From the NCBI GenBank assembly GCA_964658305.1, contig OZ210885.1, forward strand, positions 14,012,001 to 14,076,000: DNA of 64,000 bases, read 5' to 3'. The DNA is from Leptogorgia sarmentosa (lineage: Eukaryota). The number at the start of each line of letters is the position of its first letter. Position 1 is the first letter of the stretch. The notes beneath the pieces are model-generated. The model had not been told where the DNA came from, made no database searches, and saw only the letters and a program-made list of their open reading frames with translations. The translations under genes were made by a program, and so were the position numbers. Shown here piece after piece: positions 7,251-56,559 of this stretch.

Positions 7251-7414
7251 ATACTTACCTGACGCGAGAGGCACCTTGATCAACTAGGAGGTCCTCTCAG
7301 GATGAGGCCCTTTCATTGCACTTCGACTGGGTTGACTCCTGCGATTACCCCTAATGTGGGTAACTCGAGCGTATAATTTCTGGTAGTGGGGACCTGCGTT
7401 CGCGCTCGTCCCCT
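7251..7414 (+). ncRNA. U1: U1 spliceosomal snRNA, intact, 164 nt
   Basis: 5' ATACTTACCTG; SL1 loop GATCA; SL2 ATTGCAC; Sm site AATTTCTGG; terminal hairpin with TTCG loop. Confidence 0.97.
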
Positions 7415-8113: not shown

Positions 8114-8140
8114 ATCGCTTCTCGGCCTTTTGGCTAAGAT
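8114..8140 (+). ncRNA. U2: U2 snRNA 5' part (nt 1-27), interrupted by Tx1 element A
   Basis: ATCGCTTCTCGGCCTTTTGGCTAAGAT is the universal U2 5' end. Confidence 0.95.
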
Positions 8141-9031
8141 ATTCTGGCTGTTGGTGAAGAAGATTAAGCTAAAAGAAGAAGAAGAAGAAGACAGAAGAAG
8201 AAGACAAGAAGAACGAAGATCAAGCCTGGTGAAGAAGATCGCTCCCTGCTGGTCTTGGTGTCCAGTCATTGGTTTCCTGTAGTTGTGCCTGTTTGAGGAG
8301 CCCTCTAGGGGGTAAGGCGGCGGACTTGTTTCCACCTTGCGTTGTTGCATCTGGACAGGTGGAAGTGCTTGACTGAAGCCTGTCACTCTCTGTTTCCTTC
8401 TCTGTATCTGTCCACGGGGGTTGGAAACCCTCCGTTATTTCTCTCCACATTTTATTTTTGATTGAGAGGCATTTTGTCCTCTGTTAGGAATTAATTTTTT
8501 TGTTTTTGTCCTCGTTTAGAAATTAACTTTTGTTTTTATTTTTGTTTTTGCTTTGAGGCTGTTGGTCCTCGTTTAGGGTTTTTTCTTCGAGGCATCTAGT
8601 CCTCGATTAGGTATAGTATTTTTTGTTTCGAGGCTGTTGGTCCTCGTTTAGGGTTTTTTCTTTTGAGGCATCTGGTCCTCGATTAGGTATAGTATTTTCT
8701 GTTTCGAGGCTGTTGGTCCTCGTTTTGGATTTATTATTACTAGGTTTTCTAAGTACGTTCTCTCGAAGCTTTAGGTCTTCGTGGAACAATTTAGGACATT
8801 TATTTTGTTGCGAGGCTGTTAGTCCTCGTTTAGAAATAGTTGGTTAATTTTTATTTTTTATTTTTTCTTCTTTAGAGTGTTACATTAAATTCCCTACATT
8901 ACTAGTTACTCTAGGTGAGTCAATGGTTCTCATCCTTTTCTTTCCGTCTGTAGTGGCTTAACTAGTTAAGTCACAGTACAGCTTTTTCTTCCTATCTAAA
9001 AATAGTGTAAAAATTTATAAAAAGTATTAAA

Positions 9032-10393
9032 ATGCGAATACCATTCGCCAATCGTACGGCAGATGTTGATCTGCCCTTAGCAGAAGGGCAGGCCAAAGTC
9101 AGCATCAAGGCCATAGTTGATTCTTTCTGGGACCAAGTCCCAAGTAATTTTGAGGCTTTGTTTGAAGCCTTCGTGCTACTATCACCTAGGAAGGTGAGAG
9201 TAACATGTCGAACCGAAAGAGCCCTAGAAGAAGTATCCCATTTAGGTCTCTCTTTCCACAACACCCCGGTCAAATTTAATCCATGCTGATCTGCCAAGTG
9301 GGTGACCATCACCCGACTTAGTTATGGAATACCAAATGAGGCCATTGAAGAGGCTCTTAAGCCATATGGCAAAATAATTAATATAAAGGCCGATACATAC
9401 AAAGGTGTGCATATAGGTATCAGGCATGCCTTAATTGAGATTAAAACGCCAATTCCGTCATCCATTCGGGTGGCAGACCATTGGTGCAACACCTTCTACC
9501 CTGGGCAAATTCCCACTTGCTTTAAGTGTAATAAAACGGGTCATACGAGGGCGCAATGCCCACAGGTCACTCAAGGTCAGACAACCACCTCTACTGAAAA
9601 CGCTGGAAAGGCAAGTGAACAGCAACCTGAACGAAGAGAGGCTGTACCTCCTCGTCGTCCTATTCCGACTTCATTCGCTGAAGCGGTTCAGCAAGGGCTA
9701 CAGGGCCCTAATACTGATGAAAGTAACACCCCAACTGCAGGTACTGTGCCGGCTTCTGATGTGACAGGTACGGCTACAGAGGTTAGCGAGCAACCGATGA
9801 ATGAGCCAGTAGTAAAGGTTGCCACCTTGGCAAATAAACAAGCCAAGCCTCCAGAGAGAGAGGATAATGTTGAGGGAAAGACACCATCAAAAGCGTCTAC
9901 CTCTTCTACCAAAAGACCACGGTGTGAAGTGAGTAGCACCGACAGTTCCGACAGTTCGGACAGTTCGGACAGCTCAGAAGAGCAGGAAGGCAGGGAGGAA
10001 GTGGCAGGTAGTGTTAAGTCTACTAGGCTTGACCCTTCCCAAGATCTCTTTAAAACTCCTGCTGAACTACTCCCTTTACCTCCAGAGGATGAAAATGAGG
10101 AGTCAAGCCAGCTTGACACCAATGACAACCAAAAGGAAACGACTTTAGAAACCCCCCAGGATCCCGACAATGATGGAAAACATATGCAAACGTCCCAGGC
10201 TACTGATTCTATGGAATTCCCTTTGACCCAACGCACTCAGGTGAAGTTGCCTTCGGTAAAACAAGTCTCTCCGACTTCTTCCGCTGATTTCGATTTGTTC
10301 TCCTCAAAAAAGACACGGCCGCGACCAGTCTTTGGCTCTGGCCGCACAACTCGCTCTCGTAAACTTTTGTTGAGGAGGGATTCTGTTGCGTGA
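9032..10393 (+). pseudogene. Element A ORF1 (RRM-like region, CCHC knuckle, disordered tail); one in-frame TGA at 9287
   Basis: ORFs 9032-9289 and 9302-10393 are in the same frame; YPGQIPTCFKCNKTGHTRAQCP. Confidence 0.88.
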
Positions 10394-10400
10394 TTTTTCA

Positions 10401-13400
10401 ATGGAAAGCGTTGAAATAATTTCTTTAAATTGTCAGGGTTTACGTTCCGTAGACAATCGGGACACGTTATTTTCATGGTTAAATTGCTGCAAAGCAGATT
10501 TTTCGTGTCTCCAAGAAACGCATGCAGTTTCAGAGGAAGAGATGTCATCATGGCTAAAATCCGCAAAGGATAACGGTATTCTCCGCAAGGAGTATGATTG
10601 TATTTCGTCCCCAGGAACAAATAGGAGTAGTGGGGTGGCCATTCTTTATCTGAGCAAGTACGAGCTTTCTTCTTGTGCTCGTGATGACAGTGGACGGATG
10701 GTTTCTGCCAGATTTTCTAGTGGGATATTTGAATTCCAGCTATGCAATATATATGGGCCTAATAAAGCAAAGGAAGGTGACGCCTTTTTTGAAAATTTAT
10801 ATGCGGTTTTGCCCCCCGACCTACCTGTGATTTTATGTGGGGATTTCAACACTGTAGTAGACCCCAATAAAGACCGTAGGGGCTGTAACCCATTTTCGAT
10901 CTGGGCATATAACTGGTCCCAAACATTATCGAACCTCATGTCCTCATACGACTTACACGATGCTTGGCGAACTAAATATCCTGAGGCGGTGGAATTCACA
11001 TGGCAACGTCCAAATAATCGTCAGGCCAGCGGCCTGGATATGTTCTGGGTATCTAGCTTTTTTCTACAATTAATTTTAACGGTAGGAATTCTCCCCTTTT
11101 TTCGTTCAGATCATTCATATATTCATATGAAATTTTCGGTGCCAACCACAGCAAATCGGGGTCCTGGGATCTGGACATTTAATACTAGCCTTTTAAAAGA
11201 CTTGAATTTTATTTTAATGGTTACCCAGTTCTGGGAATCATGGCAAAAGGAAAAAAATTCGTTCTTCTCCTTGTCTGCGTGGTGGGATGCGGGGAAAGCG
11301 AGATTACGCAGCAAAATCCGTACCTATTCCAGGAAGAAGGCTTCCACATCTCGAAAGTACATAAGAACGCTTGAAAATACACTCTTTTTCCTGAAGCGTA
11401 GAGCAGAAAAGGGGGAAGAGGTGAATGGCTTAATAGCAGACACTCAAGCCGAACTAGAAGAGGCTCATCGCCAGAAAGCTCGTGGAGCACGCATCAGAGC
11501 AAAGGTGCAGTGGGCTGAGGAGGGAGAGATCTCCTCCGCTTATTTTTTCAGGTTAGAAAAGAAAAGGGGGGAACAACGCCTCTTTACAGCCATCAAGGAG
11601 GTGTCGGGTCGGGTAGTTCGGTCACTGGCAGCCATTGCTGCGGCATGGGTAACCTTTTACACCACGCTATTCACGGCAATAATACTGGATTCAAAGGAGC
11701 AGGACTTCTTTTTGAACCAAATAGTAGACAAACTAACGTCAATTCAGGCACAGAGTTGCGAAGGGGAGCTCTCGTTAGAGGAATGTAAGAAGGCACTAGA
11801 CGGTATGGCACCTTCAAAATCGCCGGGAATTGATGGCTTCCCAGCTGAATTCTACCAGTGTTTTTGGCCACTCATTGGCCATGACTACGTTCAGGTCATG
11901 AACGGCTGTTACCAGGCCGGCATGCTGTCTGCCTCTCAGAGACAAGGCGTAATCACTCTATTGTATAAACGAGGTGATAGACTGGAGATGAAAAATTGGC
12001 GCCCTATTACACTACTGTGTGTCGATTACAAAATAGCTGCGAAGGCAATTGCCAATCGTCTTTTGAGGGTATTAGACACGCTGGTCCACACAGATCAGAC
12101 GTGCGGCATTCCAGGTCGGAGCCCGGTTGTCAACAATCGCCTGCTTTGTGACATTGTACAGGATGTCAACAAGCGGAAAGTAGGGGGGGCGATCCTCTCA
12201 TTAGACCAAGAAAAAGCTTTTGATCGGGTCGAGTGGTCATATCTCCAGGGGGTGCTGGAAAGCATGCAGTTTGGCGTATCCTTTAGGGGTTGGATACAGC
12301 TCTTTTATAATAATATTTTCTCCTGTGTTCTGGTTAACGGAACGCCATCTACCTTTTTTTCTGTGAGTCGAGGAGTGCATCAAGGCTGCCCTTTGTCGCC
12401 TTTATTGTATGTTTTAATGGCAGAAACATTGGCATGTGCAATTCGAGCGCACCCATCGATAGATGGGATTCCCTTACCCCGAACTCGGAGAGCGAAGATC
12501 TGCCAGTATGCTGACGATACGTCCATCATAGTGATGTCTGACACTGCCTTAACGGCGGTATTTTCAGTGTTTGGACGATATGAAAAGGCCTCAGGGGCGA
12601 AATTGAACGTTGCAAAGTCACACGGCTTGCTCATGGGAACATGGATTGACCGCACCAACTTACCTGTTGCCCTTGATTGGTCATCAACCAGTATCACCAT
12701 CATAGGATCAACAATTTCGAACCAGTCGGAGGAGAAAGACTGGGAGGCGAGAGTTTGCAAGCTCACAGAGCTGCTTGCCTCATGGCAGAATCGGCAACTT
12801 TCTTTTCATGGGCGGGCTCTAGTGGTCAATATGCTCGGGCTCAGCAAATTCTGGTACCATGCGTCGTTTTTGTGTTTGCGAGACCAAGTGGCGACTGACA
12901 TAGAGAAGCTGGTGTTTCCCTATGTGTGGAGGAAGAAGCGAGAAGGGATAGTTAGATCTTCGGTGAAGCAACGGTTTGGGCAGGGGGGACTGGGATTGAT
13001 AGATGTAAGGAGAAAGGCCGCCTCACTGCATGCAATGTGGATCCGTAGGCTAATCGAAAATCCAGAGGCTATGTGGAATTTCTTTTTCTTATATCATTTG
13101 CGCATAGCATTTACTGGGTGAAAGTTGGAAGACATCCTTCTGATGTCTTCACCTCCTCCACAGGACACTCTCCCTCCTTTCTACCAGTCGGTCATGAGGG
13201 CGTGGTTCCGACTGGATCGTGGAAAGGTAGATGGCGTAATTGTCGTGAAAACTCGCGGAGGTAGCATTCTTCCATTGACAGACTTGACTGCCAGTTTTGT
13301 TTATAGGGCTCTCTCTAGTATAGATCGGGAAGAGCACAAATGTGTAAAGAAATTTCAAACATGGGGACTAGAAGTAGAGTGGCGGACAGTTTGGGCCAAC

Positions 13401-13934
13401 CTCCAAATCTGGAGATTTATCAGACCAGTGCGCGACACGGCATGGTTAGCGACGCATGGCATCTTGCCAACAGCAGACCGCTTGACTCGGTTTGGCATGT
13501 CGGTGGATCCTCTGTGCCATTGCGGACAAGTCGAAACATTGATTCACCTCTTTGTGGATTGTCCGGTGGCAAAACACATGCTGAGATGGTATGTCTCCCT
13601 GACACAAAGATCGGTACCTTGGGTTGGTATGCCTACACCATCACAGGTGTTGGTAGGTTACAAACAAGTGGTCAAGATTCCACCAGTTTTTCCGTGCCTT
13701 CTCGGGATAATCAGGCACCGCATATGGGTAGCCAGGAATGGTTGGAGATTCGACCAGGTCCCCGTAAGATACGAGAGAGTTCTGTCAGCCATAAAATCTA
13801 CGCTGCGCTTTACGTTGCGCATGCAGAGGCGACACTGTCCAGTGGATAGGTTCTCGGAATTGTGGTTAGCTGGTGGGCTGTTTGGAGTGGTGTCTCGGGA
13901 AGGAGATCAAGTAATATTTCCAGGTGAGATCTGA
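10401..13934 (+). pseudogene. Element A ORF2 (APE endonuclease, RT, C-terminal zinc finger); one in-frame TGA at 13119
   Basis: SLNCQG, LQETH, GDFN, SDH; LDQEKAFDRV, QGCPLSP, YADD; CHCGQVETLIHLFVDC; ORFs 10386-13121 and 13125-13934 share a frame. Confidence 0.95.
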
Positions 13935-14926
13935 TAGTCTTAAGATGTAATGTAGTAACGGCGGGGGGTCGCCTTTGCTGGTAGCACTGCCCACAGTTGT
14001 GTCCCAGGAAGATCTGGTGGTCGCCTTAGCTGGTTGTACTGCCTGTGTTGGATTGGGTTGTATGTTTTGTCTCCCATGAAGATCTGGTGGTCGCCTTTAC
14101 TGGTTGTACTGCCTGTATTGGATTGGGCTGTCTGTACGTTCAATTTTTGTCCTGTGGTTTGCTCGGATTTCATTCGGGTAGGCTGCACAGGTTTTCAATG
14201 TTTTAGATCTTGGGGTCGCTGCTCATGTTGCATCCGTCTAGCTCAACATCACACTCCGACCATTTCACCATCATAGGTTAGGGATCCCTGGACGTGAAGG
14301 TGGGTAGCACCGGATCGTCCAGACCATTAACGGTTGTTTCATGGCACGGGGGAGGGGTTCATGACCTCAGTCGATCCGCGTCACCTGTAGTGACCCCCCT
14401 GAATGCGGCGATTGCACCGGGTTCAGGCTCCATTGCACCGTCGGAGTCGAGTAGCCCGTCGTCGTACAATTCAAAATAAGAACTCTAACTGTTGGTCCGA
14501 ATCCTCTTAGAAGTTCTCGTGGTGAAAGAAGATTTGTGCTCGAGGTTCGTGTTTCGTGGATCGTGGTGGTTTGGTGCTGTCCATCCATTTCCAGTCCTGT
14601 GAAGTCCTGTTCAGTGTTGTCAAAGTCTGTTCCTGTTTCCTGTGGCTGTTTTGCTGTTCGTTCGTGAAGCCTGGTCCTTGGTCTTGCGTTTCGTGTTTGT
14701 GCCCGTTTGCGGGGCCCTCTAGGGGGTAACGCTAAGGCGGTGGTCTTTTTTCCTTCTTTTTGTTGCGTCTGTGGTCAGGTTCGCCTGATCTCCTTGTTCG
14801 TTCTAATCTTTTCCAGGAGCAAGTGGCTTGTTCCTTGTGTGTGAAAAAAAAAAAATTTTTTTTTTGATAGGACTCAGTTGAAACAATTATGCCAGATTTA
14901 GGTCTTACTGTTAATTGTAGTCAAAT

Positions 14927-16366
14927 ATGATACCCTATATCAATAGGACAGTGGATGTTATTTTGTCCACTCAATTGGAAGCGAGGGATGTCAATATCCG
15001 TGAGGTCATTGACGAACTCAAATCACAATTTAATGGGTACGCACACATATTTGAAGCTGTAGTGCTTGTGTCTCCCGGTACACACCGGATTACATGTAAG
15101 AGCTCCCGTAAGCTTGAGCTTTTTGAGGCTGCAGGATTTTTCGTTAGGGGTCTGCCTGTTGAGGTCAAGCCCATTAACTCGTTAAAGTGGGTTAACATCT
15201 CTAGGTTATCCTATGGGGTGCCAGAAGATGCTGTTCGTGCGGCGTTAGCCCCATATGGAGACATTCGTCTCTTCAAATTAGAAAAATATTCAAATATTTA
15301 CACGGGTGTGCGCCATGTTTTGATGGAAATACGCACTGAGATCCCTACCCGCATTAGGGTTGCCGGCCATCATTGTGTGGTCTATTATAAAGGGCAAAAG
15401 CGTCCCTGTTTTTCTTGTGGACTAGTTGGACACTATACTGATAAGTGTCCGACCAAATCGGCTCCAGGGGCTGTAACTTCTAAGGCTAGCACGTCAGCTG
15501 AATGGGGGGCTACCGTAGAAGTCCACTCGGGCCAATCATATGCGTCTGTTGTTACCAGTACGGGGACTGCTGTTACTAGTACGGCGTCTGAGCCCGTTGT
15601 TAGGTCCTCTCCCATTATTACATCTCTTTCACCGGAGAGGTCGGCATCTGTTAACGTTCCGGTTGTGGTACCAGAGGTGCCTGACGTTGCAGGTGTGGTT
15701 AGTGAATTGCTAGCCTCGGTTGCCAGGGAGAGTTCGGCTCCTGCAGTCGACCCCTTGGCTCCCATGAATTTGGTTGTGGAGTCTTCGGCGCTTGGAGTAG
15801 AGCCGACAGCTGTCATTCAGGAGCCTGGAGCTCCTGTTGAGCCTCCGGCTTCCGCTGTGGAGCATATGGAGGCGTCCGTTTCTGCTCTAGGATCTGCGGA
15901 GGTGGCTTTAGCCTCCCGTACCCCATTGCCAGGTGGTGATGAGGTTGATACGGACACACCTCCATCGGCGGAGAGTCCCTCATTCAAAGGGAACAAACGT
16001 TCCCGGCCAAGATCTCTCACCAGGTCAAATTCGCGGTCTCCCATGAGGAAGGATAGGCGTAGTTTGTCTGCGTCCTCTGGTGACTCGGCTCGTGATGATG
16101 ACTCGGATAGTATAGGTGCACAGGGTAGGAGTCGGGGGCGGCAATGCCGTCCCGCGACCCTGTCAACGCCTCCTTTTTGTCCTGACATTATTCCTGCCCC
16201 ATCGACTATTGATTCTAGGACGTCCTCTTTAACTCAGTTCACCCCGAACCTGCCTTGTGTTACACAGGATAGGATTAACTTTGCCGGACCGGAGGTCTCC
16301 TCCGATGAATTTTCTTTTGGAGATACAGGAATGTCTCCTGCATCTCTCGTGAAAGATTTCGCTTAA
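14927..16366 (+). CDS. Element B ORF1 (zinc-knuckle nucleic-acid-binding protein), open
   Basis: 479 aa; WVNISRLSYGVP, YKGQKRPCFSCGLVGHYTDKCP. Confidence 0.88.
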   Translation: MIPYINRTVDVILSTQLEARDVNIREVIDELKSQFNGYAHIFEAVVLVSPGTHRITCKSSRKLELFEAAGFFVRGLPVEVKPINSLKWVNISRLSYGVPEDAVRAALAPYGDIRLFKLEKYSNIYTGVRHVLMEIRTEIPTRIRVAGHHCVVYYKGQKRPCFSCGLVGHYTDKCPTKSAPGAVTSKASTSAEWGATVEVHSGQSYASVVTSTGTAVTSTASEPVVRSSPIITSLSPERSASVNVPVVVPEVPDVAGVVSELLASVARESSAPAVDPLAPMNLVVESSALGVEPTAVIQEPGAPVEPPASAVEHMEASVSALGSAEVALASRTPLPGGDEVDTDTPPSAESPSFKGNKRSRPRSLTRSNSRSPMRKDRRSLSASSGDSARDDDSDSIGAQGRSRGRQCRPATLSTPPFCPDIIPAPSTIDSRTSSLTQFTPNLPCVTQDRINFAGPEVSSDEFSFGDTGMSPASLVKDFA

Positions 16367-16426
16367 CTTGTCTTGTTAGTTCTTTAGTTTATATTGAGTT
16401 TTGAGTATTGCCAATACATAATCTTG

Positions 16427-19400
16427 ATGGCTACCAATTACAGCGAATCATTGTGTTCTTTGTCGCTGATATCTTTAAATTGTCAAGGATTTAGAGATAG
16501 TTTTAAGCGTGCTGCATTTTTTTCTTGGTTAGCATGTGTGAAGGCAGACATCGTCTGTCTGCAAGAGACTCATGCCACCTCTTCGGAGGAGTTTTCATCT
16601 TGGGTTACATCCCAGTTCGACTCAGGTAATAATTCGCTAAGATATTTGGCGGTCTCTTCTCCTGGTACTGCTCGGAGTCGTGGTGTGGCGGTGTTGTACC
16701 GCCCATCATTGCGTGTGGTTCAGCAGTATGCCGATTCCGAAGGACGATTACAGGTCGTTCAGTTTTCCTGTGTGGCTAGTGAGTCGTCCTCATTTCAGGT
16801 TGTTAACTTATATGGCCCTAATCGTAAAGTCGAAGGGGAGGCCTTTTTCGAGGCGGTTGTCCCTCGCATTGAGGCGGGAATGTCTACCTTTGTTTGCGGT
16901 GATTTTAATACCGTGGTCAATCCTGATCTTGATCGCCGAGGTTGTAATTCTTCTTCCCCTTGGGCATATAATTGGCCAACATCTCTTTCTGTGCTTACGT
17001 CGCATTTTAATCTGTTCGATGTTTGGCGGGTCCGGCATCCAGATGCTCGAGAGTACACTTGGCATCGGGCAAATGGGTCACAAGCATCTCGTCTTGACAT
17101 GTTTTGGGTTTCGTCTGATCTTGTGTCAGGGGTGAGGGACGTGGAGATTTATCCGTTTTTCCGTTCTGATCATTCGTATGTGTTTTTGCATGTCAATCTC
17201 CCCAGCTTGCCTGATAGGGGTCCGGGGGTTTGGAAGTTCAATACTTCCCTTTTGGCAGACGTGGAATTTGTTGCTCAGGTGCGCACATTTTGGGCTAATT
17301 GGCAAGAGGAAAAGGCTGATTTTCCCAATCTCGCCGTTTGGTGGGATGCGGGCAAGAAAAGATTGAAGCGTTTGATGCGCTGTTATTCTCGCGAACGCGC
17401 TTCGGCTCGTCGTGCTCGTCTTACGTCACTTGAGCGTACATTGTATCACCTTAATCGTCGTGAGAATAACGGTGAGGATGTGAGTCAATTTATTGCTGAC
17501 GCTAAGGCTTCGATTGAGGCGGAGTATTCACACCAAGCTCAGGGTGCTCGGTTGCGGGCCAAGGAGCAGTGGGCAGAAGAGGGTGAGACGTCCTCAGCAT
17601 ACTTTTTCCGTCTTGAAAAGACTCGGTCGCTTCGGCGGCTTTTTACTGGCATTCGTAATGCCCAAGGCGTAGTTGTGCGTTCCATCTCGGCCATCATCCG
17701 GGTCTGGTGTATTTTTTATGTCCAGTTGTTTACAGTTGTTTGCTGCGGTTCTCTGCCCTAGTGACCAAGATTTCTTTCTGGAATCTTTGGATTCTACTCT
17801 GTCCGATCGTGAGGCTGCTCTCTGTGAAGGCGTTGTGACTAATGCAGAGTGCTTGACCGCTCTCAAAGGATTTGGCCGGAATAAGTCTCCTGGTATCGAT
17901 GGGCTTCCCTATGAGTTTTATTTGCGCTTTTGGGACGTGCTCGGTGGTGATTTAGTGGACGTCTACAATAATTGTATTACTCACGGGTCCTTATCGTTTT
18001 CACAACGCACGGGTCTTATCACTTTGCTGTATAAAAAGAATAATAAGTTGGATACTAAGAATTGGCGTCCTATCTCACTGTTGTGCACGGACTACAAGAT
18101 TCTCACGAATGGTTTGAAGCCTGTTTTGTCCTCCGTTGTGTCACCTTCTCAGGTGTGCGGTGTACCAGGTCGGTTTTCTGGGGCACACGTGCGTCTGCTT
18201 CAGGATGTGGTTAATTTTGCCAATATGGATAACATCGGTGCGGGAATTGTCTCCCTAGATCAGGAAAAAGCGTTCGATCGCGTGGATTGGGCGTTCATGT
18301 TGAAGGTGTTGAAGCAGATGAACTTCGGCTCGTCCTTTTGTGCCTGGGTACAATTATTGTATACCGATATTTTTTCCCACGTGATGGTCAATGGGTATGT
18401 TAGTGAGGGTTTTAAGGTTACCCGTGGTGTCCGACAGGGATGTCCTTTGTCTCCGCTGTTGTATATTCTTGTGGCTGAAACCATTTCGGCTGCTATCAAG
18501 AAGGATCCCGCGATTGACGGTTTGTCTTTGCCAGGTGGTGAGAAGGTGAAGATTTTTCAGTATGCAGATGATATTAGCATACTAGTCCAATCGGATCAGG
18601 CCTTGCAGGCCTTGTTTTCCTTGTTTGAGCAGTATGAAAGGGCATCGGTTGCTAAGCTCAATGTTGCAAAGAGTCATGGTCTGTTGGTTGGCGCCTGGAA
18701 GCAGCGAGTAGACTTGCCGGTTGAGCTGAATTGGTCGAATGATTTTATCACTGTCCTCGGGTGCCGGATAAGTAATGCTAATCAGGTTGATTGGCACTCT
18801 TTGTTGGAACGGTTCAATAGCCAATTGGTGTTATGGAAGCAGCGTCAGTTGTCATTTCGGGGATGTGCATTAATTGCCAATGCATTAGGGCTGTCCATTT
18901 TTTGGTATCAAGCCACTATTTTCGATGTACCCAAGACCGTAATTCATGCCATCAATAAGATCCTCTTTCCCTTTGTGTGGGGTAAGAAACGGGAATGGAT
19001 GGCTCGTACCTCTGTCACGCAACCTGTAGCCCAAGGTGGGTTTGGTGTGGTTGATGTGGCTCGTAAGATTTCGTCCTTGCGGGCGGTCTGGTTCCGGCGT
19101 TATCTCTCGCACTCGCCGCATCCTTGGTCGGTCTTTTTTAATTATCATGTGGAGGCAGTGTTTCATGTTTATCCGACTGCGGTTTTGAGTCGGGATTCCA
19201 TTCCCGCATATTTGATCAAGAGGCTTCCGGCCTTTCATGCCTCGCTTCTGCAGGTGTGGGCTGACCTGCATGGTAGGAAGGAGCAGGGTATCTGGGTGAT
19301 CCCTCGTCCTTCTGGGGATCCGTTACCTGTGGCTGAGTTAACAGCAGCCTTGGGATACTCGTTCCTCTCGAGACACCAGGTTGTTGAACATCGTTCTGTG

Positions 19401-19991
19401 GCTAAATTCCGCGATTGGGGAATTGGTGTTAGTTGGCCGTCTGTGTGGGCCAGTCTTCATTTGTGGCGCTTTGTGCGTTCTGTTCAAGATACTGCGTGGC
19501 TGACATTCCATGGTATCCTTCCTACTTCTGATCGTCTGGTTAGGTTCGGCATGAAGGTTAACCCTGATTGTTTTTGTGGCCTTCCTGAAGATCTTCTTCA
19601 TCTCTTTGGTCGATGCCAGGTTGCTCGCGACGTTCTTGACTGGTTTGTGTTGCAGGTTCAAGTTTCGTGTCCTTCTGTCACTTCTCTTTCTCTTTCCGAC
19701 ATTCTCTTTGGTTTCTCTTCTGCTTCTCCGGTTCCTGTAGTGTATAATGCTTTGCTTGGTATTCTTCGTCATCAGATCTGGCTTAGTCGCAACAGGCAGC
19801 GGTTTGAGGGTATTGACCCGGATGTCGCCGTGTTGTTGCGTAAGGCAAAATCCACCTTTCGTTTTCTTGTTCGAATGCACAAGCGCCATTGTCCACGCCA
19901 ACGGTTTATTGAGGTTTGGCTCGCCAACGGTAATGTTGGTCGACTTACGGATGAGGATTGGATTCACTTTTCTCGTGATTTTGTTACTTGA
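16427..19991 (+). pseudogene. Element B ORF2 (APE, RT, zinc finger), frameshift near 17740
   Basis: Overlapping ORFs 16394-17761 and 17673-19991 carry the EN and RT motifs (LQETH, GDFN, SDH, QGCPLSP, YADD). Confidence 0.93.
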
Positions 19992-21915
19992 TGTTGGTTG
20001 GTTGTTCTTTGGTGATGTTCGTTAGTGTTGTCCATGTTGATTGTTAGCCTGACGATGCGATGGTCGCCTTAGCTGGTTGTACTGTCGTTGTCTGACGGGG
20101 TCCTTTTTTGTCCTTGCATCTTTAATTTTTGCCCTGTGGTTCACTTGGGTTGCACAGGTTTTCCAATGTTTTCGATCTGGTTGAATCAGTGGGGTTGCTG
20201 CTCATGTTGTCGCCATCTAGTTAACATCATCCTCTAACTGTGTCATCATCATAGGTTAGGGATCCCTGGGCGTGATGGTGGTTAGCATCAGATCGTTCAG
20301 GCCATTCATGGTTGCATCATGTCATCATCGCGTCACCTGTAGTGACCCCCCTGAATGCGGCGATTGTGACGTTCGTTGATATTATGTTATACTTAAATGA
20401 AGTAGATCGCCTAGCGGTAGATTACTTCCGGCTCAAAGACGTAGCGAACACGTTGTTTTTCAAAAGGATAGAAACAGTCGAATTATTATTATAGTAAAAG
20501 TACTTTATATATCGTCAAAATCAGAAGTAAGTTTAGTAATATGTATTTGTAGTTTGTATCAGTAGTATGTATATTAGTTATAGCCTTTATTTACACGTTT
20601 TCCTTGTATTATTCTTAGTTTTTACCGCTTTGTTTACGTGCAATTTTGCTAAAATAAATTGGAGTGTGTTTGCACAACGCAGTGGTTAAATTCAAGTGAA
20701 CTTGACGCAGCAGCAACCTCTCGTGGTGTGTCGAGAACGCAACAGTAAAAATTCTGATTTCGCAGAATAAAGAAATCAAAGGTAAGCGAAAGTTTCGTAT
20801 TACACGAGTATGAGTATCAAAGGCGACAAGGACTCGTTTGAACCAAGTCAAACTATGGAGAATCAAAAGAGGATAATTACTCGGTCGAGTAAAGTCTTTC
20901 AAAACACTGTCAATGACAAAGTTGAGTTAGCTATATGCACCCGGAGCAATTTGATTACACTTATGAAGAAAGTCGAGGAATGTAACAACAACACTACTGA
21001 GAAACATATGGAGGAACTCATAAAAGTTACTAAGGAGTATGAACTCATAACTAATGAGCTTAAATGCCTGCTAGACCAGGACAAATATGGAGATTTCAGG
21101 GAGGAAGCTGATTGGCAAAAAAAGGAACAGACTATTAGCAAAGCACATAGCTTGATTAAGAATACCAAGACTGTGCAATCTGATAGACGCTCGCAGGCCC
21201 CCTCCTGGCGTTCAAGATCACACTCGCACCGCAGTCGTCGACCCTCTTCTTCAACGAGTAGCTATACTAGATTAAACGCTCTAGCAGAAGCCGCCGCAGC
21301 CAGAGAAAGCGCGGAGTACGAACGGGTGATGGCAGCAAAGGAGCATGATTGCCGTCAGCGAGAATTAGATCACGCAAAAGAAATGGCAGTATTGATCGCA
21401 GATAAGAAGGTAGCCATTGCCAATGCAAAACTGAAAGCCATCGAGGAGGCTTTGCAAGATCAGGAGCTAGGAGAGAGAGCCAGTCTTCCCGAAGTCCCAG
21501 AGGTAAGAGCCGAAAAAAGAACAGATGATTGGGTAAACTCGGTTGCTTCACAAGAAATTGTTGGTGAAAACCCCCACGTTTCCCCCCTTCCTACCACAAA
21601 TCTTGGGAATCCTATTTCAAACACAACTCCTGTAAAAAAGCTTCATGTTATTGTTATATTAGAATGGTGGGTTTAGGGCCACTCCCGTAGACAGCCTGTG
21701 CACGGGCGAAGAGTATAGGGGGTGTGGTTTTAGAAGGGAGAAAAAACAGTGAAGTAGTCAAGTTGAGTTGCTAAATAAAAATACAAAATTCGTGAGTCGT
21801 GAGGTTTTTTAAAGGAGACGTAACACCTCCGCGTGCGACGTTTTCGACACAGTGGCGACCCCGGCAGGATATCGAAGCACTGCAAAACAGTAAATGGCGA
21901 AGTCTGGCGAGTCTA

Positions 21916-30043: not shown

Positions 30044-30644
30044 ACCTTCGGAATAAGTGTTAGTAACTCTGCTCGCAAGGTTTACTACTAGCTGCAGTTC
30101 TTTTTTGCAGACACGCCTTCTTCTTTGTTCTGTCTTCCCGCTGTCTGGCCGGCCTACTAGGTGTCAAGGTAGCAGTTTGTCCATTCTTTTTTCTTTTGGA
30201 CTGCTTTTCTTGTTCTTCGGAACTCGATTGGTAGTCTTTCCTGCTGTTTGTTGCGCGGTTAGCACGCGACACAGCATAGGGCCGCCCATTACAGTGTTTT
30301 TTTATTGTTTTTATTAGGTAGTGGGTAATAGCTCTTCTTGTGTGTGACCTGTCGAGGAGTCTGTTTGGGGACTACTCAAAGGTCGGTGGTCTTTTAGGTT
30401 CTTTTTTTTTTGCATTCGGTGTTGCGGATTGAGGTCGGTGGACCAACATATTCGTTCCCTGGCTCTTCTTCTTTAAAAAGGACCTTTCTTTCCACTTAGT
30501 TTTTTGATCCTTAGTGTGTGTGTGGGTCTTAATTTGTAGTACTTTTTAAGGCTCAATTTTCTTTGCCACTCGGGTCTTACCTGTTTTGGCAGTGTTTATT
30601 AGGATCAATTTGGTTTAGTTAAATAATTAATAGTAATTTTTGGT

Positions 30645-32435
30645 ATGTCTGCCCCAGCTGTGTTTAGTCAAGAGGACTTTGCGAAGTGGAACCAGACCAC
30701 GTCTGTGTTTCTCTTGCCAAAGAAACTGGTTGGCAAAACCAAAGTCCCTCAGCTACGGGCAGAATTAGTTAAGGCCATTGGGGAGAAGAGTGTGTCTTGT
30801 GTTCAGGCCTTGCCTGGCATGAAATTTCGTGTGTGTTTTTCTTCTCCCTCCGTTCGAAGTCAGTTTGACATCAACGGTCTTAACTTTCGGGGCCTTACCA
30901 TCACGCCCTTCCCGGCCTACGAGGAGGTCAAATCCGTTTTTGTGGATCGTGCACCTCCCCAGATGCCGGATCAATACATCTACGACGCCCTGGCACCATA
31001 CGGTCGTGTGATCGCGGTGAAGCACTTAACTATTAAGGGCTTCCCGTCTGTTAAATCTGGCACACGTATGGTGCAAATCGTCATATCGAAGGCCATCCCA
31101 GCTGAAATTCGCGTGGTTGGATTTCAGCTGTCGTTCCGTGACCGCGGGCAGCCTCCAACTTGCTTTGCGTGCCAAGAGGTGGGGCACACTGCAAAGGACT
31201 GCCCAAAGTCATCAAAACGCCATGGCCGTAATCAACATCGAAATAGTGCTGGTAAACCACAGCCTACAGAGGCGGAGGACCGTAACAACCTGCCGGCTAC
31301 GTCCGGCCTTTCTAAATCGTCCTCTGGCTCTCGCACTGGAGACCTTCGCGAGAAATTAACTCCGAAGGCCACCAACTCGGCAGTGCCCAAGGCTACCAGC
31401 AAGTCTAAGCCTACAGAGGGTTCGGCCAAAGACAAAAACAAACCCTCCTCTTCTTCTTCTTCTCGCAAGGGTGACCTGCGTGAGAGGTTAACGAAGAAGA
31501 CTAGCAAGCCGGAACTGCCATTTGTTCCGGCTGTAGCGGCTAAGGCCAAGGCTCCTCAGGCTAAGGGGGTTAATCCCCTATTAGTTTCGGCTAAGGAGAG
31601 CACCTTCTTGCCGGCCTCGTCCGGCCCTTCTAAATCGACCTCTTCTTCTCGCCCTAGAGGCCTTCGGGAGAAGCTGAGGAAGAAGGTTCCCAAGGCCACC
31701 GAGCCGTCGGATGACACCACAGTGACGCCTCCGACAGCGGAGCATTTGAAGCGCAAATCCTTTGATTTTGCGCTTCCAATACCCTATGCAAGCCCACGTC
31801 CCCTTGGCAAGTCATCATCCAAGGCACCTAAGGGTGTTAGGGCCAACTCCACCAGGGATGCTCCTTTTTCCTCTTCCTCCTCGAGTAGTGAGGATGAAGA
31901 GGGTATAGTGTCCAAGAGGGTATGCCAGTCCGCTCCTGCTCCTTTGACTCCGACCAATGTTAGCGTGTGGCCAGGGTTCACGAGCCCTTCTAGTCCAACT
32001 GCCACTCCAGAGGCCATGGAGGCAGAGGCTGACGTGGACAAATGTTTGAGTGGTGATACGGTCGTTGATCCGATCATCGCTCAAGAATCTGCGCCTGCTC
32101 TTGACTCTACTGAGCCAGTCGGATCCCCGGAGCATATGGATGATGCTCCCGTGCCTCTTCAGGCTGATGTGGAAGATGACGCTAATGCTGCTTCGCAGGA
32201 TCCTCCTGCAGTGGATATCTTGTCTCAGCAGTCTGAGTCATCCCTCGATCTCTTCGAGGCACTGGCAGCCATCCATGAAGACTCGCTGTCTCGTCTTCGC
32301 GATGATGTCAGTGAGGTTGGTGCATCTTCGACATGCACGTCGTTTAGTGATCAGCTTCGTGCTGATCAACTCGAGGAGCTGCCCACATCTGGGACATCAG
32401 ATTCTGATGGCGAGTCTGTTGTCCATCAATATTAA
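30645..32435 (+). CDS. Element D ORF1, open, 596 aa
   Basis: ALAPYGRV, SGTRMV, GQPPTCFACQEVGHTAKDCP; repeated S-rich/GDLRE(K/R)L motif; overlaps ORF2 ATG at 32407. Confidence 0.88.
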   Translation: MSAPAVFSQEDFAKWNQTTSVFLLPKKLVGKTKVPQLRAELVKAIGEKSVSCVQALPGMKFRVCFSSPSVRSQFDINGLNFRGLTITPFPAYEEVKSVFVDRAPPQMPDQYIYDALAPYGRVIAVKHLTIKGFPSVKSGTRMVQIVISKAIPAEIRVVGFQLSFRDRGQPPTCFACQEVGHTAKDCPKSSKRHGRNQHRNSAGKPQPTEAEDRNNLPATSGLSKSSSGSRTGDLREKLTPKATNSAVPKATSKSKPTEGSAKDKNKPSSSSSSRKGDLRERLTKKTSKPELPFVPAVAAKAKAPQAKGVNPLLVSAKESTFLPASSGPSKSTSSSRPRGLREKLRKKVPKATEPSDDTTVTPPTAEHLKRKSFDFALPIPYASPRPLGKSSSKAPKGVRANSTRDAPFSSSSSSSEDEEGIVSKRVCQSAPAPLTPTNVSVWPGFTSPSSPTATPEAMEAEADVDKCLSGDTVVDPIIAQESAPALDSTEPVGSPEHMDDAPVPLQADVEDDANAASQDPPAVDILSQQSESSLDLFEALAAIHEDSLSRLRDDVSEVGASSTCTSFSDQLRADQLEELPTSGTSDSDGESVVHQY

Positions 32436-33201: not shown

Positions 33202-33547
33202 TCTTTTTAATCTTTCTTTCTTCCTCTGCCGTTCCGTGAAGGGGGGTCGCCTTCGTTGGTTGTACTGCCCCGATCGGTTCGGTAGGGTCGTTTTCTCTTT
33301 TTAAATGCCCGTTGCTGCCTGTATCAGGTGAGCATCGGTCCATGTACCGTCCTAGTATGTGTTGTTTTTTATATAGAGTTAAATGCACTAATCGAGGCGT
33401 CAGAAAAATAAATATTCTCGGGGTGCATTTAATGAGGAGGTAGGGATCGTCCCCCTAGTCGTTTGCGTGCCGGTAGCACCCTCCTCGATTTAGGGAAATC
33501 CATTGCACGCCCCCCAGTGGGGGTGGATTTGCCTATATCCAACATAA

Positions 33548-34391: not shown

Positions 34392-34415
34392 ATCGCTTCT
34401 CGGCCTTTTGGCTAA
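34392..34415 (+). ncRNA. U2: U2 snRNA 5' part (nt 1-24), interrupted by element C
   Basis: ATCGCTTCTCGGCCTTTTGGCTAA after the same spacer as 7415-8113. Confidence 0.93.
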
Positions 34416-37400
34416 ACGTTCTGGGTATTACCCGTGTTCAGTTAGTTTTTGCTGAGAAATCATTTTTTATGAAAGATTTTTTCATACTTTTTTTCAATTT
34501 TTCGTGATTTTCATTTTGGGAATCAAGATATCTTCATTATCAAGTTTCATCGTGTGCTTTTTTCTATCAAACCGTGTGTGTTCCTGATTGCTGGAGTGTA
34601 CCACCAATTATCTTTTTGGACTACAGGGATCAGGTGCAATAACTTTCTGGTGAACTATACACTCTGTAAACAAATTGTTGCAGAGTAAGGTATTTTTGCA
34701 TATATATTCTTCGTGTGAACTTTTCGTGGGAACATTAATTATGCCTATATACCAACCTAACCGTGCCATCATTGGTACTATACCTGACGGGGCCATGCAG
34801 CCTCCACCAACTTTAAGTGTCTCATTGATGAATTTGAGCCTCAATTGAAGGACATTATGAAACATTCTTTCAAGAATATCATGCAATTAGGGGCTCGTTC
34901 TTTTGTTATTCACGTGGCTAAAGATTCCGATGTCCCATTATATATTAAACGGGGCCTAAGTTATCACGGACATAAAATTCACTTAAAAGAAGCCAAGAAT
35001 ACAACCACCGTCACTTTACAGCGTGTCCCTTTCGGATTATCCATCTAATCTATCGTTGATACTCTCCGGGTGTATGGCCATGTTAGTGAATGCCTGCATT
35101 AATTATATCGAGGATATGGTGTTTCGAAAGTGGTAGCTGAGATGGATCTCAAATCGGATATCCCATCCCGTATACGTATCAAAGGCAACCCCATTAACAT
35201 CTTTTATCGGGGTCAACCTCGATCATGCTTTGCCTGTGGAGAAGGTGGGCATGTGTCTAAAGATTGTCCGCGTAATCGGAATCGAAATATACACCCCAAA
35301 CCCCAGGTGACTCCGCCTAGTGAAAACCAGAACGTTCAGAAGTCACGCCCTGCAGAGACAACGTCACAACTGCCAACGTCATCACCACCTTCCAGTCCCT
35401 CTGAGTCTACCAAGGTACCGGCGACACCCACTTACGCAGACGCTGTTTCAGGTGCATCATCATCCTTATTGACTGTGGTTCCGTCCAAACCGGTGGAGAC
35501 ATCTCCTTCTGCAAAGATTGCGGTCGCGGTGCTGCCTCGTGAAACGGGTTCGAATTCCGAACACCCGCCATCTGCATCCCAATCTGACTCAACATTGTTG
35601 CCTCCCGAACATCAAGCAAACGAGGTTAAATCTCTCCCACCAAAAGCTCCAGTTGATCCAGTGATCCCCTCTTCAACTTCCACCAAGAGGGCGCATAAGC
35701 AAGATTCGGATTCAGAGAGCGATATTCCCCCCTCCAAGAGGGTCGTATCTACTTCTGTACCAAGTAACGATAAAAGCGACATGGTCATCGATCCTCCTAG
35801 TGCCGAAGCCGAATCGGATGAAGACCCTTTGAAGGTATATGAAGTCACCTCAGTGGAGCAAGATCCCACGGCAGACAGGGTTCCTCCTCCAGAAGTTGAC
35901 CTCACTGAGGACGACGGATGTCTACCAGTTCCAGGTGCGGCTCTCTCCGATCCACCTTCTGCTGCAAAGGTACCCCCCCAAGCGGCAACCGATAATTTGT
36001 CTGTCAACCTGCCCATCCCAGGCAAAGAAAGTGAGGCGAAGATTTCCCAGGAACCTCTCAAGAAGGCGGTAACACCCCTGAGATTGGATCGCTCAGTCTC
36101 TTCTCCCAACCTGCAATCCCCTCAACTATTCACCCCCACCCCACCCACACCCCGTAGCAAGCCTAGTCCTCAAATTTCGCAATTTTCCCAGTCATCTACG
36201 GGATCTCTGTGGACAGCACGGAGTTCCCTGTCCACAAAAACGAAGGGGAAAATAGTATGCAGCAAGGTCTTACACAAGTCCCACCAGCTCAGTTTGTACG
36301 AAAGAAAACCTAGCCAAGTTTGTTCTCGGGGTCCTCTAAGCCTTGGTAATACGTTCCTCCTGACCATCGCATTATCTGACATTTCACAATTTTTTCGATA
36401 TGGCTAATAAAATCAAAATGATAACTCTCAACTGTCAAGGCCTACGGGCTCGTCCTAGTTTGGAAACACTTTTTTCATGGCTAAACTGTTTTGCGCCTGA
36501 CATTGTTTGCCTACAAGAAACGCATTCTCTCTCGGAAGCTGAATTCTCGAAATGGACAGATGAAATGAATAATACGGTCTTATCCAAAACTTCGTATCAA
36601 GTTGTCTCGTCACCGGGTGCTAGCAGAAGTTGTGGCGTCGCCATTCTTTTTCGGTCCGAATTGAGTTTAGAAGCAACCTTTCGAGATGAGGCTGGTAGAA
36701 CAGTGGCAGCGATCCTTAAACATCAGGACGTTACTTTTCAAGTTGCGAACATTTATGGGCCCAATAATAAAAAGGACGGCATCCCTTTCTTTGAATCGTT
36801 GGTTCCTGCACTACAATCGGACTGTCCCATAATACTGTGTGGCGATTTCAATACCGTGTTGAATCCAGCGGCTGACCGCCAATCATGTAACCTTTCGTCG
36901 CCCTGGGCTTATAATAATCCTCCCTCATTGTGTACTCTTATGGATACTTTTGAGTTAACAGACATTTGGCGGAAACATCATCCAACCGAAAAACAGTATA
37001 CTTGGCACCGTCCCAATGGTAGTCAAGCCTCTCGTTTGGACCTCTTCCTGGTCTCCTCTTCCTTGGTAGATTGCATCTCACACACCGACATCCTCCCCTT
37101 TTTTCGCTCTGATCACTGCTACGTATATATGGAGTTCTCTTTGCCGGATCAGATAGCCCTAGGCTCAAGCTATTGGAAATTCAATACTATGCACCTCACG
37201 AACCCGAATTTTCGCAACATGATAGAAACCTTCTGGAAATCATGGCAAAAACACAAGCATCGCTTTTCCTCATTGACGGCTTGGTGGGATAGCGGAAAAA
37301 TTGAGTTACGCAAGCGAATTAAGACTTTCTCACGTCGCGAAGCATCTCGACGGAAATTGAGGAAAAAATCTCTCGAAGCCACAATTTACCATCTGAATCG

Positions 37401-40276
37401 AAGAATGGAGAAAGGAGAAGATGTCCATGAATACTTAGGTGAAGCAAAAGCTGATTTGGATCTACTCATGCAGGAAGCAGCGAGAGGAGCCTAAGTTCGT
37501 GCACGGGTACAATGGGCAGAAGAAGGGGAACGGTCCACTTCATACTTTTTTCAACTGGAAAAACGTCGAGCGACCAAGTCAGTGATCCGATCCATCTCTA
37601 GGCCGGACAGTTTGTTGGCAATGACATCGCATGGCATACTTGAAGTGTTTCGCGAATTCTACTCTGATTTATTTACCTCACAACCCTTAGCGGAGTACGA
37701 CATTGACTTTTTCATATCCCATATTGAGCACACTTTGTCGTCGCACGACCAGAAACTTTGTGAAGGACATCTAACGGTGGAAGAGTGCTTTGAAGCGGTA
37801 AAGAATATGTCACAGAACAAAACCCCTGGGTTGGATGGCCTTCCAGCTGAGTTCTACATCGTCGGTTGTCTCCCTGTCTCAGACTGCCGGTACACCTGGT
37901 CGATTATCGGATGCAAATATCCGTTTAATTAAAGACATTGTTCAGTATGCGAATGAGAAAGATTTTTCGGCGGCTATTATATCCTTAGACCAAGAAAAAG
38001 CCTTTGACTGAGTGGAATGGCCGTTCATGTCACACGTTTTATCTGCCATGGGGTTTGGTCCATCATTTCAACGGTGGGTGAGCCTCCTCTACACCAATAT
38101 CTCCTCAGCGGTTATTGTCAACGGCTTTATATCCAAACCATTTGCTGTTTCCAGGGGTGTCCGTCAAGGTTGCCCACTTTCCCCGTTACTTTATATCCTA
38201 GTGATCGAGGCTTTGGCTATTACCATCGAGAAGGACACGAGCATTGATGGTTTTACTCTTCCTGATGGCTCTCGACAAAAGTTATGCCAATATGCTGATG
38301 ATACTACGGCGTTGGTCATGTCAGATCAATCTATCCTGCAGCTCTTTGCAACATGTAAGCAGTACGAATCAGCATCGGGAGCCAAGCTCAATCCAAGTAA
38401 ATGTGAGGGCCTTCTGCTTGGTGCCTGGCGTGCTCGGTCAACCTTCCCTGTGGAACTCAATTGGAAAGCAGATTGTATTCGTGTCCTCGGGAGTCGTATC
38501 AGCAATGACGGTTCAGAGGATTGGCAATTCCCCCTCGACAAATACACCAAATTGTTGGAATCCTGGAAGCGTCGTGACCTTTCCTTTCGTGGGTGTACTA
38601 TGGTAACAAAGACTCTTGGGTTGAGTCTTTTCTGGTATCTCGCCACCTTCCAAGAGATACCGTCGAAGATACTGGCAACGATCAACTCGTTGACATTTTC
38701 ATATATTTGGGGCAAGAAACGAGAATGGTTAGCCCGAAATTCGGTGACCCAACCTGTGGGATCTGGTGGTCTTGGTGCTGTTGATGTTGGACGTAAGATA
38801 CAATCTCTACATTGCCTATGGATCAAACGGTACCTACTTGGTCCTTGTCATGGTTTTTTTTAATATTTCGCAATGTGTGCTTTCCCCAACAAAGCATCAA
38901 TGACTGACATCCTATTACACCCACGCCCCGCTACTCGTTCTTTACACGCTCTACCGGCATTCTACAAATCCATCCTCTGTTCCTGGGTAGCACTGAATCC
39001 TAGCCTTTCGGAACAGATCTGGAAAGTACGCGCACCGAAACCACCGGACATAACCATTGACCACCTAAGCGCCAAGCTAGCCTATGATCTTCTTCGAAAG
39101 CCTTTCTCCCATCGCTGCTTCGAACATTCACATACCTTAGGGCCAGCTAAAGAGTGGAAGTGGGTGTGGCATAATTTATCACTGTGGAACTACGTGCGAT
39201 CTGTACAGGACACTGCGTGGCTTTCTGCCCATGGAATTCTTCCTACAGCTGATCGTCTACAGCGATTTGGACAACAAGTGTCGGGGGAGTGTCACTGTGG
39301 CTGCCCAGAGACTCTCGTCCATCTATTTACGGAGTGTCAAGTTGACATCGACGTGCTCCACTGGTTCTTAGCACGTTTCCAACAGTACCTTCCGCACAGC
39401 AAATATCCTACCGACCAAGAACTCCTTTTCGGTTTTCATCCAGCTCGCAAAATTCCTGTCGCATACTCAGCGATGTTAGGTGTTATCCGCCACCATTTAT
39501 GGCTGACCCGGAATGCTTCCCGTTTCGACTCCACCAAACCGGATGTGGACTTTATCCTATCCCGTGTCAAGTCAACTTTCCGATTCCTACTACGTGTCCA
39601 ACATCGTAATTGTAAACCAGAGCTGTTTGATCGTGAATGGCTGGCAAAGGGGGCCATCGGGGTCTTAACTCCCGACAACGTTCTCATTCTGCGACAGGAC
39701 TTTCGCACTTGACCATATTGTGTGTTGTATTTTGTGTTACTGTCACCATACGGGGGTCGCCTTGATTGGTTGTACTGCTGTCCTTGGGGCAGTCTAACTT
39801 GTGTGTACACTGTTTCCTTACTGTCGAGGCAATGTTTGTATAACTCGTGAAATAGTAATATCGTATGTCCTGTAATATGTTTAATTGTCTTGCCGAGATA
39901 TGCGGCGTGTATAGTGGTCTCGTAATGTTTCGCAATTTTGGCCCGTGGTTCTTTCAAGTCTAACTCCCAAGGATTGCACAGGTATCTGGTGGACTCAGGG
40001 GTGCTCATGTCATCATCGACTTCAGTTTCAGATCATCTACTTCATTCAATCACCATCATAGAGTTAGGGAACCCCAGGCGTGACAGCGCTTAGCACTTGA
40101 TCGTCTGGACCACTCACGAGTCGTTTCATGGCACGGGGGAGAGGGTCGTACTCTCTGTTGATCTGCTTGCTGTGTAGCAACCCCCTGGGTGCGGCGTTCG
40201 CACAAAAGTTCAGGTTGCATTGCACCGACGGAACCGGATCAGAAACGATGCAAACTTTACGTCGTTCAATTCAAAA
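34416..40276 (+). mobile_element. Tx1-clade element C (third family) inserted in U2; ORF1 ~34741-36380 and ORF2 36400-39712 both disrupted
   Basis: Flanked by U2 nt 1-24 and U2 nt 22 onward; YRGQPRSCFACGEGGHVSKDCP; LQETH, GDFN, SDH, QGCPLSP, YADD; ends CAATTCAAAA. Confidence 0.93.
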
Positions 40277-40605
40277 TAAGATCAAGTGTAGTATCTGTTC
40301 TTATCAGCTTAATATCTGACATCTACTTCATTCAATCACCATCATAGAGTTAGGGAACCCCAGGCGTGACAGCGCTTAGCACTTGATCGTCAGGGCCACT
40401 CACGAGTCGTTCCATGGCACGGGGGAGAGGGTCGTACTCTCTGTTGATCTGCTTGCTGTGTAGCAACCCCCTGGGTGCGGCGTTCACACAAAAGTTCAGG
40501 TTCCATTGCACCGACGGAACCGGATCAGAAACGATCCAAACTTTACGTCGTTCAATTCAAAATAAGATCAAGTGTAGTATCTGTTCTTATCAGCTTAATA
40601 TCTGA
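40034..40605 (+). repeat. Two imperfect 286-bp direct repeats (element C 3' end plus U2 nt 22-64)
   Basis: 40034-40319 and 40320-40605, differing at about 6-7 positions in the element part. Confidence 0.92.
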
Positions 40606-40729
40606 TATGTTAGGCAATGTCCTAACTCATATATTAAACTGATTTTTGGACCTCGGCCATGGGATTGAAGCTTGCTTCGCCCTGGCCACGGGTTGTCTCG
40701 GTATTGCACTACCTCCGAGTACGGCCCAC
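40563..40729 (+). ncRNA. U2: U2 snRNA 3' part (nt 22 to ~188)
   Basis: TAAGATCAAGTGTAGTATCTGTTCTTATCAG, Sm site GATTTTTGG, SLIV CTCGG-TATTGCACTACCT-CCGAG. Confidence 0.96.
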
Positions 40730-41183: not shown

Positions 41184-41200
41184 ATACTTACCTGACGCGA
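41184..41200 (+). ncRNA. U1: U1 snRNA nt 1-17, interrupted by element E
   Basis: ATACTTACCTGACGCGA directly after the U1 promoter. Confidence 0.92.
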
Positions 41201-56558: not shown

Positions 56559-56559
56559 A

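Follow-up and report, generated by a model that had tools for sequence, protein, structure and literature searches.

Candidate docking motifs for host snRNP proteins in the tails of Tx1-type retrotransposons inserted into U2 genes of Leptogorgia sarmentosa

The locus studied here raises the question of whether retrotransposons that insert into U2 snRNA genes carry, in their 3' tails, imitations of the motifs that snRNP proteins recognize. The window analysed is a 64,000 nt stretch of Leptogorgia sarmentosa DNA (contig OZ210885.1, positions 14,012,001 to 14,076,000), in which Rfam located U1 at 7251 and 33546 and U2 at 40551, that is, a U1/U2 snRNA gene repeat. Nested, decayed retrotransposons fill this repeat, and all element copies in the window are broken. 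An earlier note on this DNA had described an Sm-site-like 8-mer beside a conserved hairpin in three U2-targeting families, here called A, B and C, and had suggested that their RNA might mimic an snRNP. Features are given on the + strand unless stated otherwise.

Element A (8141..14476) follows U2 nt 1-27, which lie behind the U2 upstream region (8114..8140), and ends in TTCAAAA; its ORF1 spans about 9030-10393 and its ORF2 (APE, RT and zf-RVT, with an in-frame stop) 10374-13934. A remnant of U2 nt 22-26 (14477..14481) stands between the 3' end of A and the 5' end of element B (14482..20366), and A followed by B at one U2 target site is a tandem insertion. From 20367 an unrelated BEL/Pao-type sequence replaces the 3' end of B. 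Element C (34416..40276), which has several stops, follows U2 nt 1-24 (34392..34415), ends in TTCAAAA and joins U2 at nt 22; U2 from nt 22 to its end occupies 40563..40729, with SLIII and SLIV retained alongside the Sm site of the gene itself (about 40641-40649). All three elements were found to be inserted within U2 nt 22-27, as judged by the 5' flank in A and both flanks in C; because the 3' junction of B is lost, its U2 targeting is read from the 5' junction only. The transcript had been said to start with U2 nt 1-27, which holds for A, whereas C stands after nt 1-24 and B after nt 22-26, behind the end of A. Pfam identified APE and zf-RVT in the pieces of A, B and C, and RT in A and B (the RT part of C lay outside the scan). 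This order, ORF1 and then an ORF2 with APE, RT and zf-RVT, is that of the Tx1 clade; one homologue carries the name 'Transposon TX1 uncharacterized 149 kDa', and one is named from Paramuricea. The UTRs of A, B and C contain neither AAUAAA nor AUUAAA. At 40034-40605 the 3' end of C, together with about 45 nt of U2, lies in a 286-bp tandem duplication, which may reflect unequal exchange, reinsertion or an assembly artefact.

The 8-mers were found where they had been reported, with AATTTTTG starting at 14142 in A and at 20124 in B, and AATTTTGG at 39934 in C, and the hairpin arms were likewise confirmed (CCYGTG from 14151, 20133 and 39942; CACAGG from 14186, 20153 and 39977). All three tracts lie in the 3' UTRs of the Tx1-type elements: AAUUUUUGU of A at 14142..14150, AAUUUUUGC with the short hairpin of B at 20124..20158, and AAUUUUGG with the hairpin of C, which has one C.A mismatch in its base stem, at 39934..39982. 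A metagenome scan contributed a further tail from a separate assembly, L001, in which AAUUUUUGC is followed by the same hairpin in the same register. Tract and hairpin are present in all four UTRs that extend to this point (A, B, C and L001), and the positional conservation across families that the earlier note had proposed was borne out in 4/4 cases, one of them from an independent assembly, although the sample is small. In these four, a descriptor scan placed the G of the tract always one base ahead of the stem; the descriptor was composed after the motif had been seen, misses the real U2 gene and was used for register and background only. When nine bases are counted from the first A, the stem adjoins the tract.

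Sequences of this kind are common in the background. RAU4-6G occurs 27 times on the + strand of the window and 24 times on the - strand, and in 12-17% of UTR shuffles, and AAU4-5G appears in 4-6% of shuffles per UTR; a tract within three offsets of the stem has, by composition, a probability of about 0.001-0.002 per UTR. The four sequences are well separated from one another, with 16-39% agreement at 4-fold synonymous sites, ORF2 C-termini that are 39-57% identical, and separate branches in the tree. The bases just upstream of the tract differ in all four. A position fixed in 4/4 UTRs while synonymous sites are near saturation argues that the tract is under selection rather than a product of chance, as judged from four sequences of which one, L001, has no assigned target. 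A, B and C have 14 invariant blocks of at least 4 nt in common, the tract among them, so this selection does not point to Sm in particular.

How closely the tract resembles an Sm site depends upon the consensus applied. The nonamer PuAUUUNUGPu, which its source defines as what is 'usually' found (10.1101/857334), is matched by 0/4 tracts, as A, B and L001 are without the final purine and C is one U short. The core AUUUUUG is present in A, B and L001, while C has four U and fits neither the canonical nor, at this site, the non-canonical pattern of PMC12359035. The statement that only C fits the consensus was therefore correct under RAU3-6GR and is reversed under the AUUUUUG 7-mer, to which A, B and L001 conform and C does not. 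Furthermore, AAUUUUUG, shared by A, B and L001, is identical to a U4 8-mer bound by Gemin5: the U4 118-125 fragment AAUUUUUG binds with a Kd of 2.4 µM, its last three bases making a minor contribution (PMC5131778). The snRNP code requires a stem immediately after the nonamer, and this stem is sequence-independent (10.1101/857334); snRNA Sm sites are, in the wording of PMC5131778, located at the 3'-terminal stem-loop. Sm rings also assemble on mRNA 3' UTRs, internal sites included, and one human mRNA in three has a predicted canonical site flanked by structure, such sites being termed cytoplasmic (PMC12359035). The host's own U1 Sm site (7375-7383), AAUUUCUGG, fits none of the patterns of PMC12359035, so consensus tests of mammalian origin are strict for this animal. 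From tract to element end there are 327 nt in A and 335 nt in C. A distance rule for Sm sites was reportedly set out by Golembe in 2005.

The conserved hairpin of A (14151..14191) consists of a CCUGUG/CACAGG base, a UG bulge and a covarying upper stem. Across a four-row alignment of the 12-bp stem, 41/42 cells were paired, with two-sided changes at 4/12 pairs and six invariant pairs, the base of the stem being conserved in sequence. These pairing values were equalled in 10/500 shuffles, and slid controls were only 20-51% paired. We treat the covariation as moderate support, because the structure was derived from the same four rows and the upper stem of B is gapped. The RNAalifold consensus returned the same helix with the tract unpaired, and no pairing partner of the tract was common to A, B and C. 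The terminal CAAAA was considered as a long-range partner of the U tract and rejected, since in none of A, B and C did it come out as the preferred one. Folded alone, the hairpin gave z-scores of -4.3 (A), -2.4 (L001), -0.2 (B) and +0.2 (C), of which those of A and L001 are significant. The stem of C contains a C.A mismatch (CCCGUG/CACAGG) that had been overlooked previously, and the minimum-energy fold of C alone pairs the tract into the stem. A stem of at least 5-6 bp follows the tract immediately, but it is weak in B or C folded singly. In whole-UTR folds the predicted accessibility of the tract was mixed, with mean unpaired values of 0.41, 0.87, 0.35 and 0.77, compared with 0.36 for the real U2 site. 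Contigs from four (X1, X4, X6 and X8) of 24 sequencing runs, among which no RNA run was listed, were compared with the tail of C only. X1, at a depth of 152, retained the mismatch, whereas X4 read CACGGG, which restores the pair in a single contig of depth 2.6 and may be an error. Both X1 and X4 span the tract of C with no listed change, and X6 and X8 contain the 3' arm of the hairpin, their loose ends stopping before the tract.

Nearer the element end lies another motif, AUUGCAC, which recalls the loops bound by U1A/SNF. The candidate hairpin of A, GGCUCC[AUUGCACCGUC]GGAGUC (14426..14448), stands 38 nt before the element end, with about 230 nt of other structure between it and the Sm-like tract and hairpin. 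C has two copies, the first with one stem mismatch (40213..40235) and the second, GGUUCC[AUUGCACCGAC]GGAACC, in the 286-bp duplication (40499..40521). Within the window CATTGCAC occurs six times on the + strand and 0 times on the - strand, against expectations of about 1.1 and 1.4, and its sites are the two U1 genes and four element 3' ends (A, C twice and the U1-targeting family D), within about 50 nt. In A and in both copies of C, AUUGCAC occupies the 5' side of an 11-nt loop closed by C:G, and it takes a bulge form in D; B, cut off upstream of this position, and L001 stop short of it. The stems of A and C differ by a paired change (GGCUCC/GGAGUC versus GGUUCC/GGAACC), and in the loose ends of X1, X6 and X8 CAUUGCAC stands at the corresponding position, with a 3' spacer that varies. 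Non-gnathostome metazoans have one SNF protein for U1 SLII as well as for U2 SLIV, which prefers a C:G-closed loop (PMC5992148). Because its closing pair is the C:G that SNF prefers, as in U1 and unlike the U2 of this window, the hairpin is SLII-like, and the earlier description of it as SLIV-like falls away. The AUUGCAC motif is better supported than the Sm reading of the tract, and binding of the hairpin by SNF is, judging from the sequence and predicted fold, probable. As an independent snRNP-protein motif, the loop also speaks for mimicry in the broad sense.

Family D, a Tx1 family with copies at 30063-33547, 41201-44361 and 58263-61615, inserts in U1; its 5' copies, at 41184 and 58246, follow U1 nt 1-17. 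At its 3' end D carries AUUGCAC in a C:G-closed bulge (33495..33529), with 39 nt separating this from the junction with U1 nt 3 (33548), and a target duplication of 15 bp (U1 nt 3-17) can be deduced from different copies. The bulged frame of the motif differs from that of A and C, and RAU4-6G is absent from the 345-nt UTR of D. The presence of AUUGCAC without the Sm-like tract favours SNF recruitment as the shared trait, and it follows that the tract is not required by every snRNA-targeting family. The 7-nt bulge of D resembles a U1A PIE half-site; the element site is single, whereas the U1A PIE element requires two sites. The D-family tails also contain AAUAAA, placed within the loop of a long hairpin (33407, 61544-61578); the AUUGCAC bulge follows about 95 nt downstream, which recalls U1A control of polyadenylation. 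At the other end of the element, the first bases of D pair with U1 nt 7-17 to give a hairpin of 12 bp (41184-41219 and 58246-58282; z -6.3, 0/200 shuffles). This hairpin buries part of the end of U1 that pairs with splice sites, which suggests that the RNA begins at U1 +1 and masks it.

Downstream of the ORF2 stop, all Tx1 tails seen, those of U1-targeting as well as of U2-targeting elements, have a bulged hairpin, GGUCGCCUU...GGUUGUACUG (13967, 14019, 14089, 20062, 33245, 39755, 46938 and 61413; 4079 in L001). A has three copies, of which the first is a variant. The hairpin had no Rfam match and is a candidate handle for ORF2p. In E, a member of the clade of B and L001, no tract was seen in the 80 nt that remain after the upstream motif; the spacing elsewhere is 30-156 nt.

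We propose that the kept tail motifs of the U2-inserted Tx1 elements may be docking sites for host snRNP proteins, aiding RNA stability and nuclear return, a reading to which we give a probability of about 0.45. The element would be transcribed from the U2 promoter as a U2-element chimera, its RNA exported and translated, and bound in cis by ORF2p. SNF, and probably Sm, would then be loaded on the tail, where the docked proteins might stabilize an RNA that has no poly(A) signal and help it to re-enter the nucleus before insertion into U2 genes at a position set by the endonuclease. The choice of site is most simply attributed to the APE endonuclease, by analogy with other Tx1 elements. Docking of SNF/U1A is the surer part; loading of an Sm ring on the tract is somewhat less likely than not. 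Counting against Sm docking, a transcript that ran on into the target would already have the Sm site, SLIII and SLIV of U2 itself at its end, and six stem pairs are invariant although the snRNP code asks no particular sequence of its stem. The earlier claim of snRNP mimicry is upheld in the register shared by 4/4 UTRs, in the 9-nt tract, unpaired in the consensus fold and followed by a stem, and in the AUUGCAC loop; it is weakened by a tract that is not 3'-terminal, by a U1-targeting family that has no tract and by homology to U2 that went undetected. A more extensive route seems unlikely on present sequence evidence: the translated, U2-launched RNA would become a pseudo-snRNP with Sm ring, SNF and trimethyl cap, be imported and pass through Cajal bodies by U1/U2 clusters for delivery to its target, the SNF loop having been acquired independently in U1- and U2-targeting lineages. 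If this were true, host RNP trafficking would carry the element to its target, and SNF binding alone, if true, would be a case of retrotransposon RNA using a spliceosomal protein. How non-LTR RNPs return to the nucleus and locate low-copy targets such as snRNA genes can be approached through these tails, whose two motifs are short, can be mutated and have known candidate ligands. In the open literature outside Repbase, searched by title and abstract start, no paper was found that describes retrotransposon tails with Sm or U1A/SNF sites.

The explanation that competes most closely is that tract and hairpin form an ordinary LINE-tail recognition structure, bound by ORF1p, ORF2p or another host protein with affinity for U-rich RNA, and that the Sm likeness is incidental; we regard this as a serious possibility, if short of an even chance. 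Conserved 3' stem-loops are established in other LINEs, where they serve RT recognition. The whole UTR is structured and holds many conserved blocks, half of the stem pairs (6/12) never vary as against the sequence-independent stem of the snRNP code, and the U1-targeting family manages without the tract, all of which sits well with a LINE-tail structure, as does the binding of Sm-like tracts by other proteins (PMC12359035 section 33). It leaves unexplained, however, why an exact A-U4/5-G tract, unpaired in the consensus fold, should stand at nonamer spacing, and why a second snRNP-protein motif should accompany it in U2 order. Even if the tract were of this kind, the AUUGCAC loop may yet be a binding site for SNF.

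The order of the motifs, which is that of U2, could also have been inherited. A single event of read-through retrotransposition might have captured the 3' half of U2 (Sm site, SLIII and SLIV), which was then divided by a 230-nt insert and retained for its structure; the elements lie directly upstream of the U2 remainder, and L001 is collinear with the U2 Sm site and SLIII, ending in CACAGG versus CACGGG. We think such a relic improbable, since a covariance model of the four hairpins found no match to the U2 gene and Rfam no U2 match in the UTR of A (E values up to 10 in both cases), 134 of 2556 window tiles equalled the summed score of alignment to the U2 3' half, the loop is closed by C:G as in U1 rather than as in this U2, and a functionless relic would not outlast saturated divergence. 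Capture from U2 as an origin is nonetheless compatible with the docking explanation. Lastly, the likeness of the U-rich 8-mer could have arisen by chance in U-rich tails and serve no selected role, as the frequency of RAU4-6G in UTR shuffles allows and as the 3/24 minus-strand sites after which a GC-rich stem likewise stands illustrate. This is largely refuted and very improbable, given that 4/4 tails have the tract at the same position (a compositional probability of about 0.002 in each), that synonymous sites are near saturation and that upstream neighbours differ in every case. Docking of host snRNP proteins remains our preferred reading of the motifs.

Comparison with known systems places the elements near, but outside, described families. 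Keno is likewise an APE-type Tx1 element of U2 snRNA genes, cnidarians included, with tandem insertion at one site (PMC4494074, PMC4640811 section 6). Its 3' flank is that of Utopia and starts from U2 nt 39, whereas the flanks of A and C start from nt 22 (PMC4640811 section 6). An identification with Keno was considered upon the shared U2 insertion, but because of this difference in 3' flank A, B and C were set apart by the described site and not filed as Keno. The passages on Keno in PMC4494074 and in section 6 of PMC4640811 mention no snRNP-like tail motif. Utopia resembles the present case in having several families side by side in U2 arrays, yet it has a restriction-like endonuclease and the nt 39 site, where A, B and C have APE (PMC4640811). 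Both the U2 nt 22-27 site and the U1-targeting family D are absent from the list of snRNA-targeting elements in section 11 of PMC4640811 (2015).

The RNAs that follow the snRNP code (U1, U2, U4 and U5, viral Sm RNAs and telomerase RNA) share with the tails an A-U-rich tract followed by a stem of >6 bp (10.1101/857334, PMC5131778), and telomerase RNA is a precedent for an RT template with an Sm site. The element site differs in its internal position, some 330 nt away from where a coding RNA of 6 kb would end, and the ninth purine is missing in 3/4. The Sm sites of mRNA 3' UTRs are similar in placing a U2-type AUUUUUG and a 3' structure in a long coding RNA, but these are common and cytoplasmic, whereas the element tract is positionally conserved, mobile, in U2 genes and accompanied by an AUUGCAC loop (PMC12359035). 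As in U1 SLII and U2 SLIV, AUUGCAC follows a C:G closing pair and has a variable 3' spacer; the element loop is, however, of 11 nt and not 10, and sits in a retrotransposon tail (PMC5992148).

Searches for relatives covered three collections. The viral collection gave no match to the U2 junction pattern, 0/12 confirmed protein matches, and 13 GGTCGCC motif matches of which 0 had the hairpin; in the genome collection 0/25 matches were confirmed and the UTR motif was found 0 times. The metagenome scan yielded four loci from 95 stretches, with a 3' UTR in L001 only; L002 ends within the ORF, and L003 and L004 are weak matches (26% identical). The tree comprised 44 rows, 13/51 homologues having been omitted as truncated or as having no anchor motif, and D fell on a long branch whose placement is unsure.

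Other features of the window are recorded here. At 54500-58215 lie retrotransposon fragments with a restriction-like endonuclease motif, recognized by eye, which stop about 30 nt short of a U1 start; their C-terminal piece had no Pfam match. A block that is 76% identical between A and B (8272-8353 versus 14688-14771) contains a CCCTCTAGGGGG hairpin, while the rest of the two 5' UTRs has diverged. Bases 1-282 of the window are identical to bases 63719-64000, which suggests a wrapped or tandem assembly.
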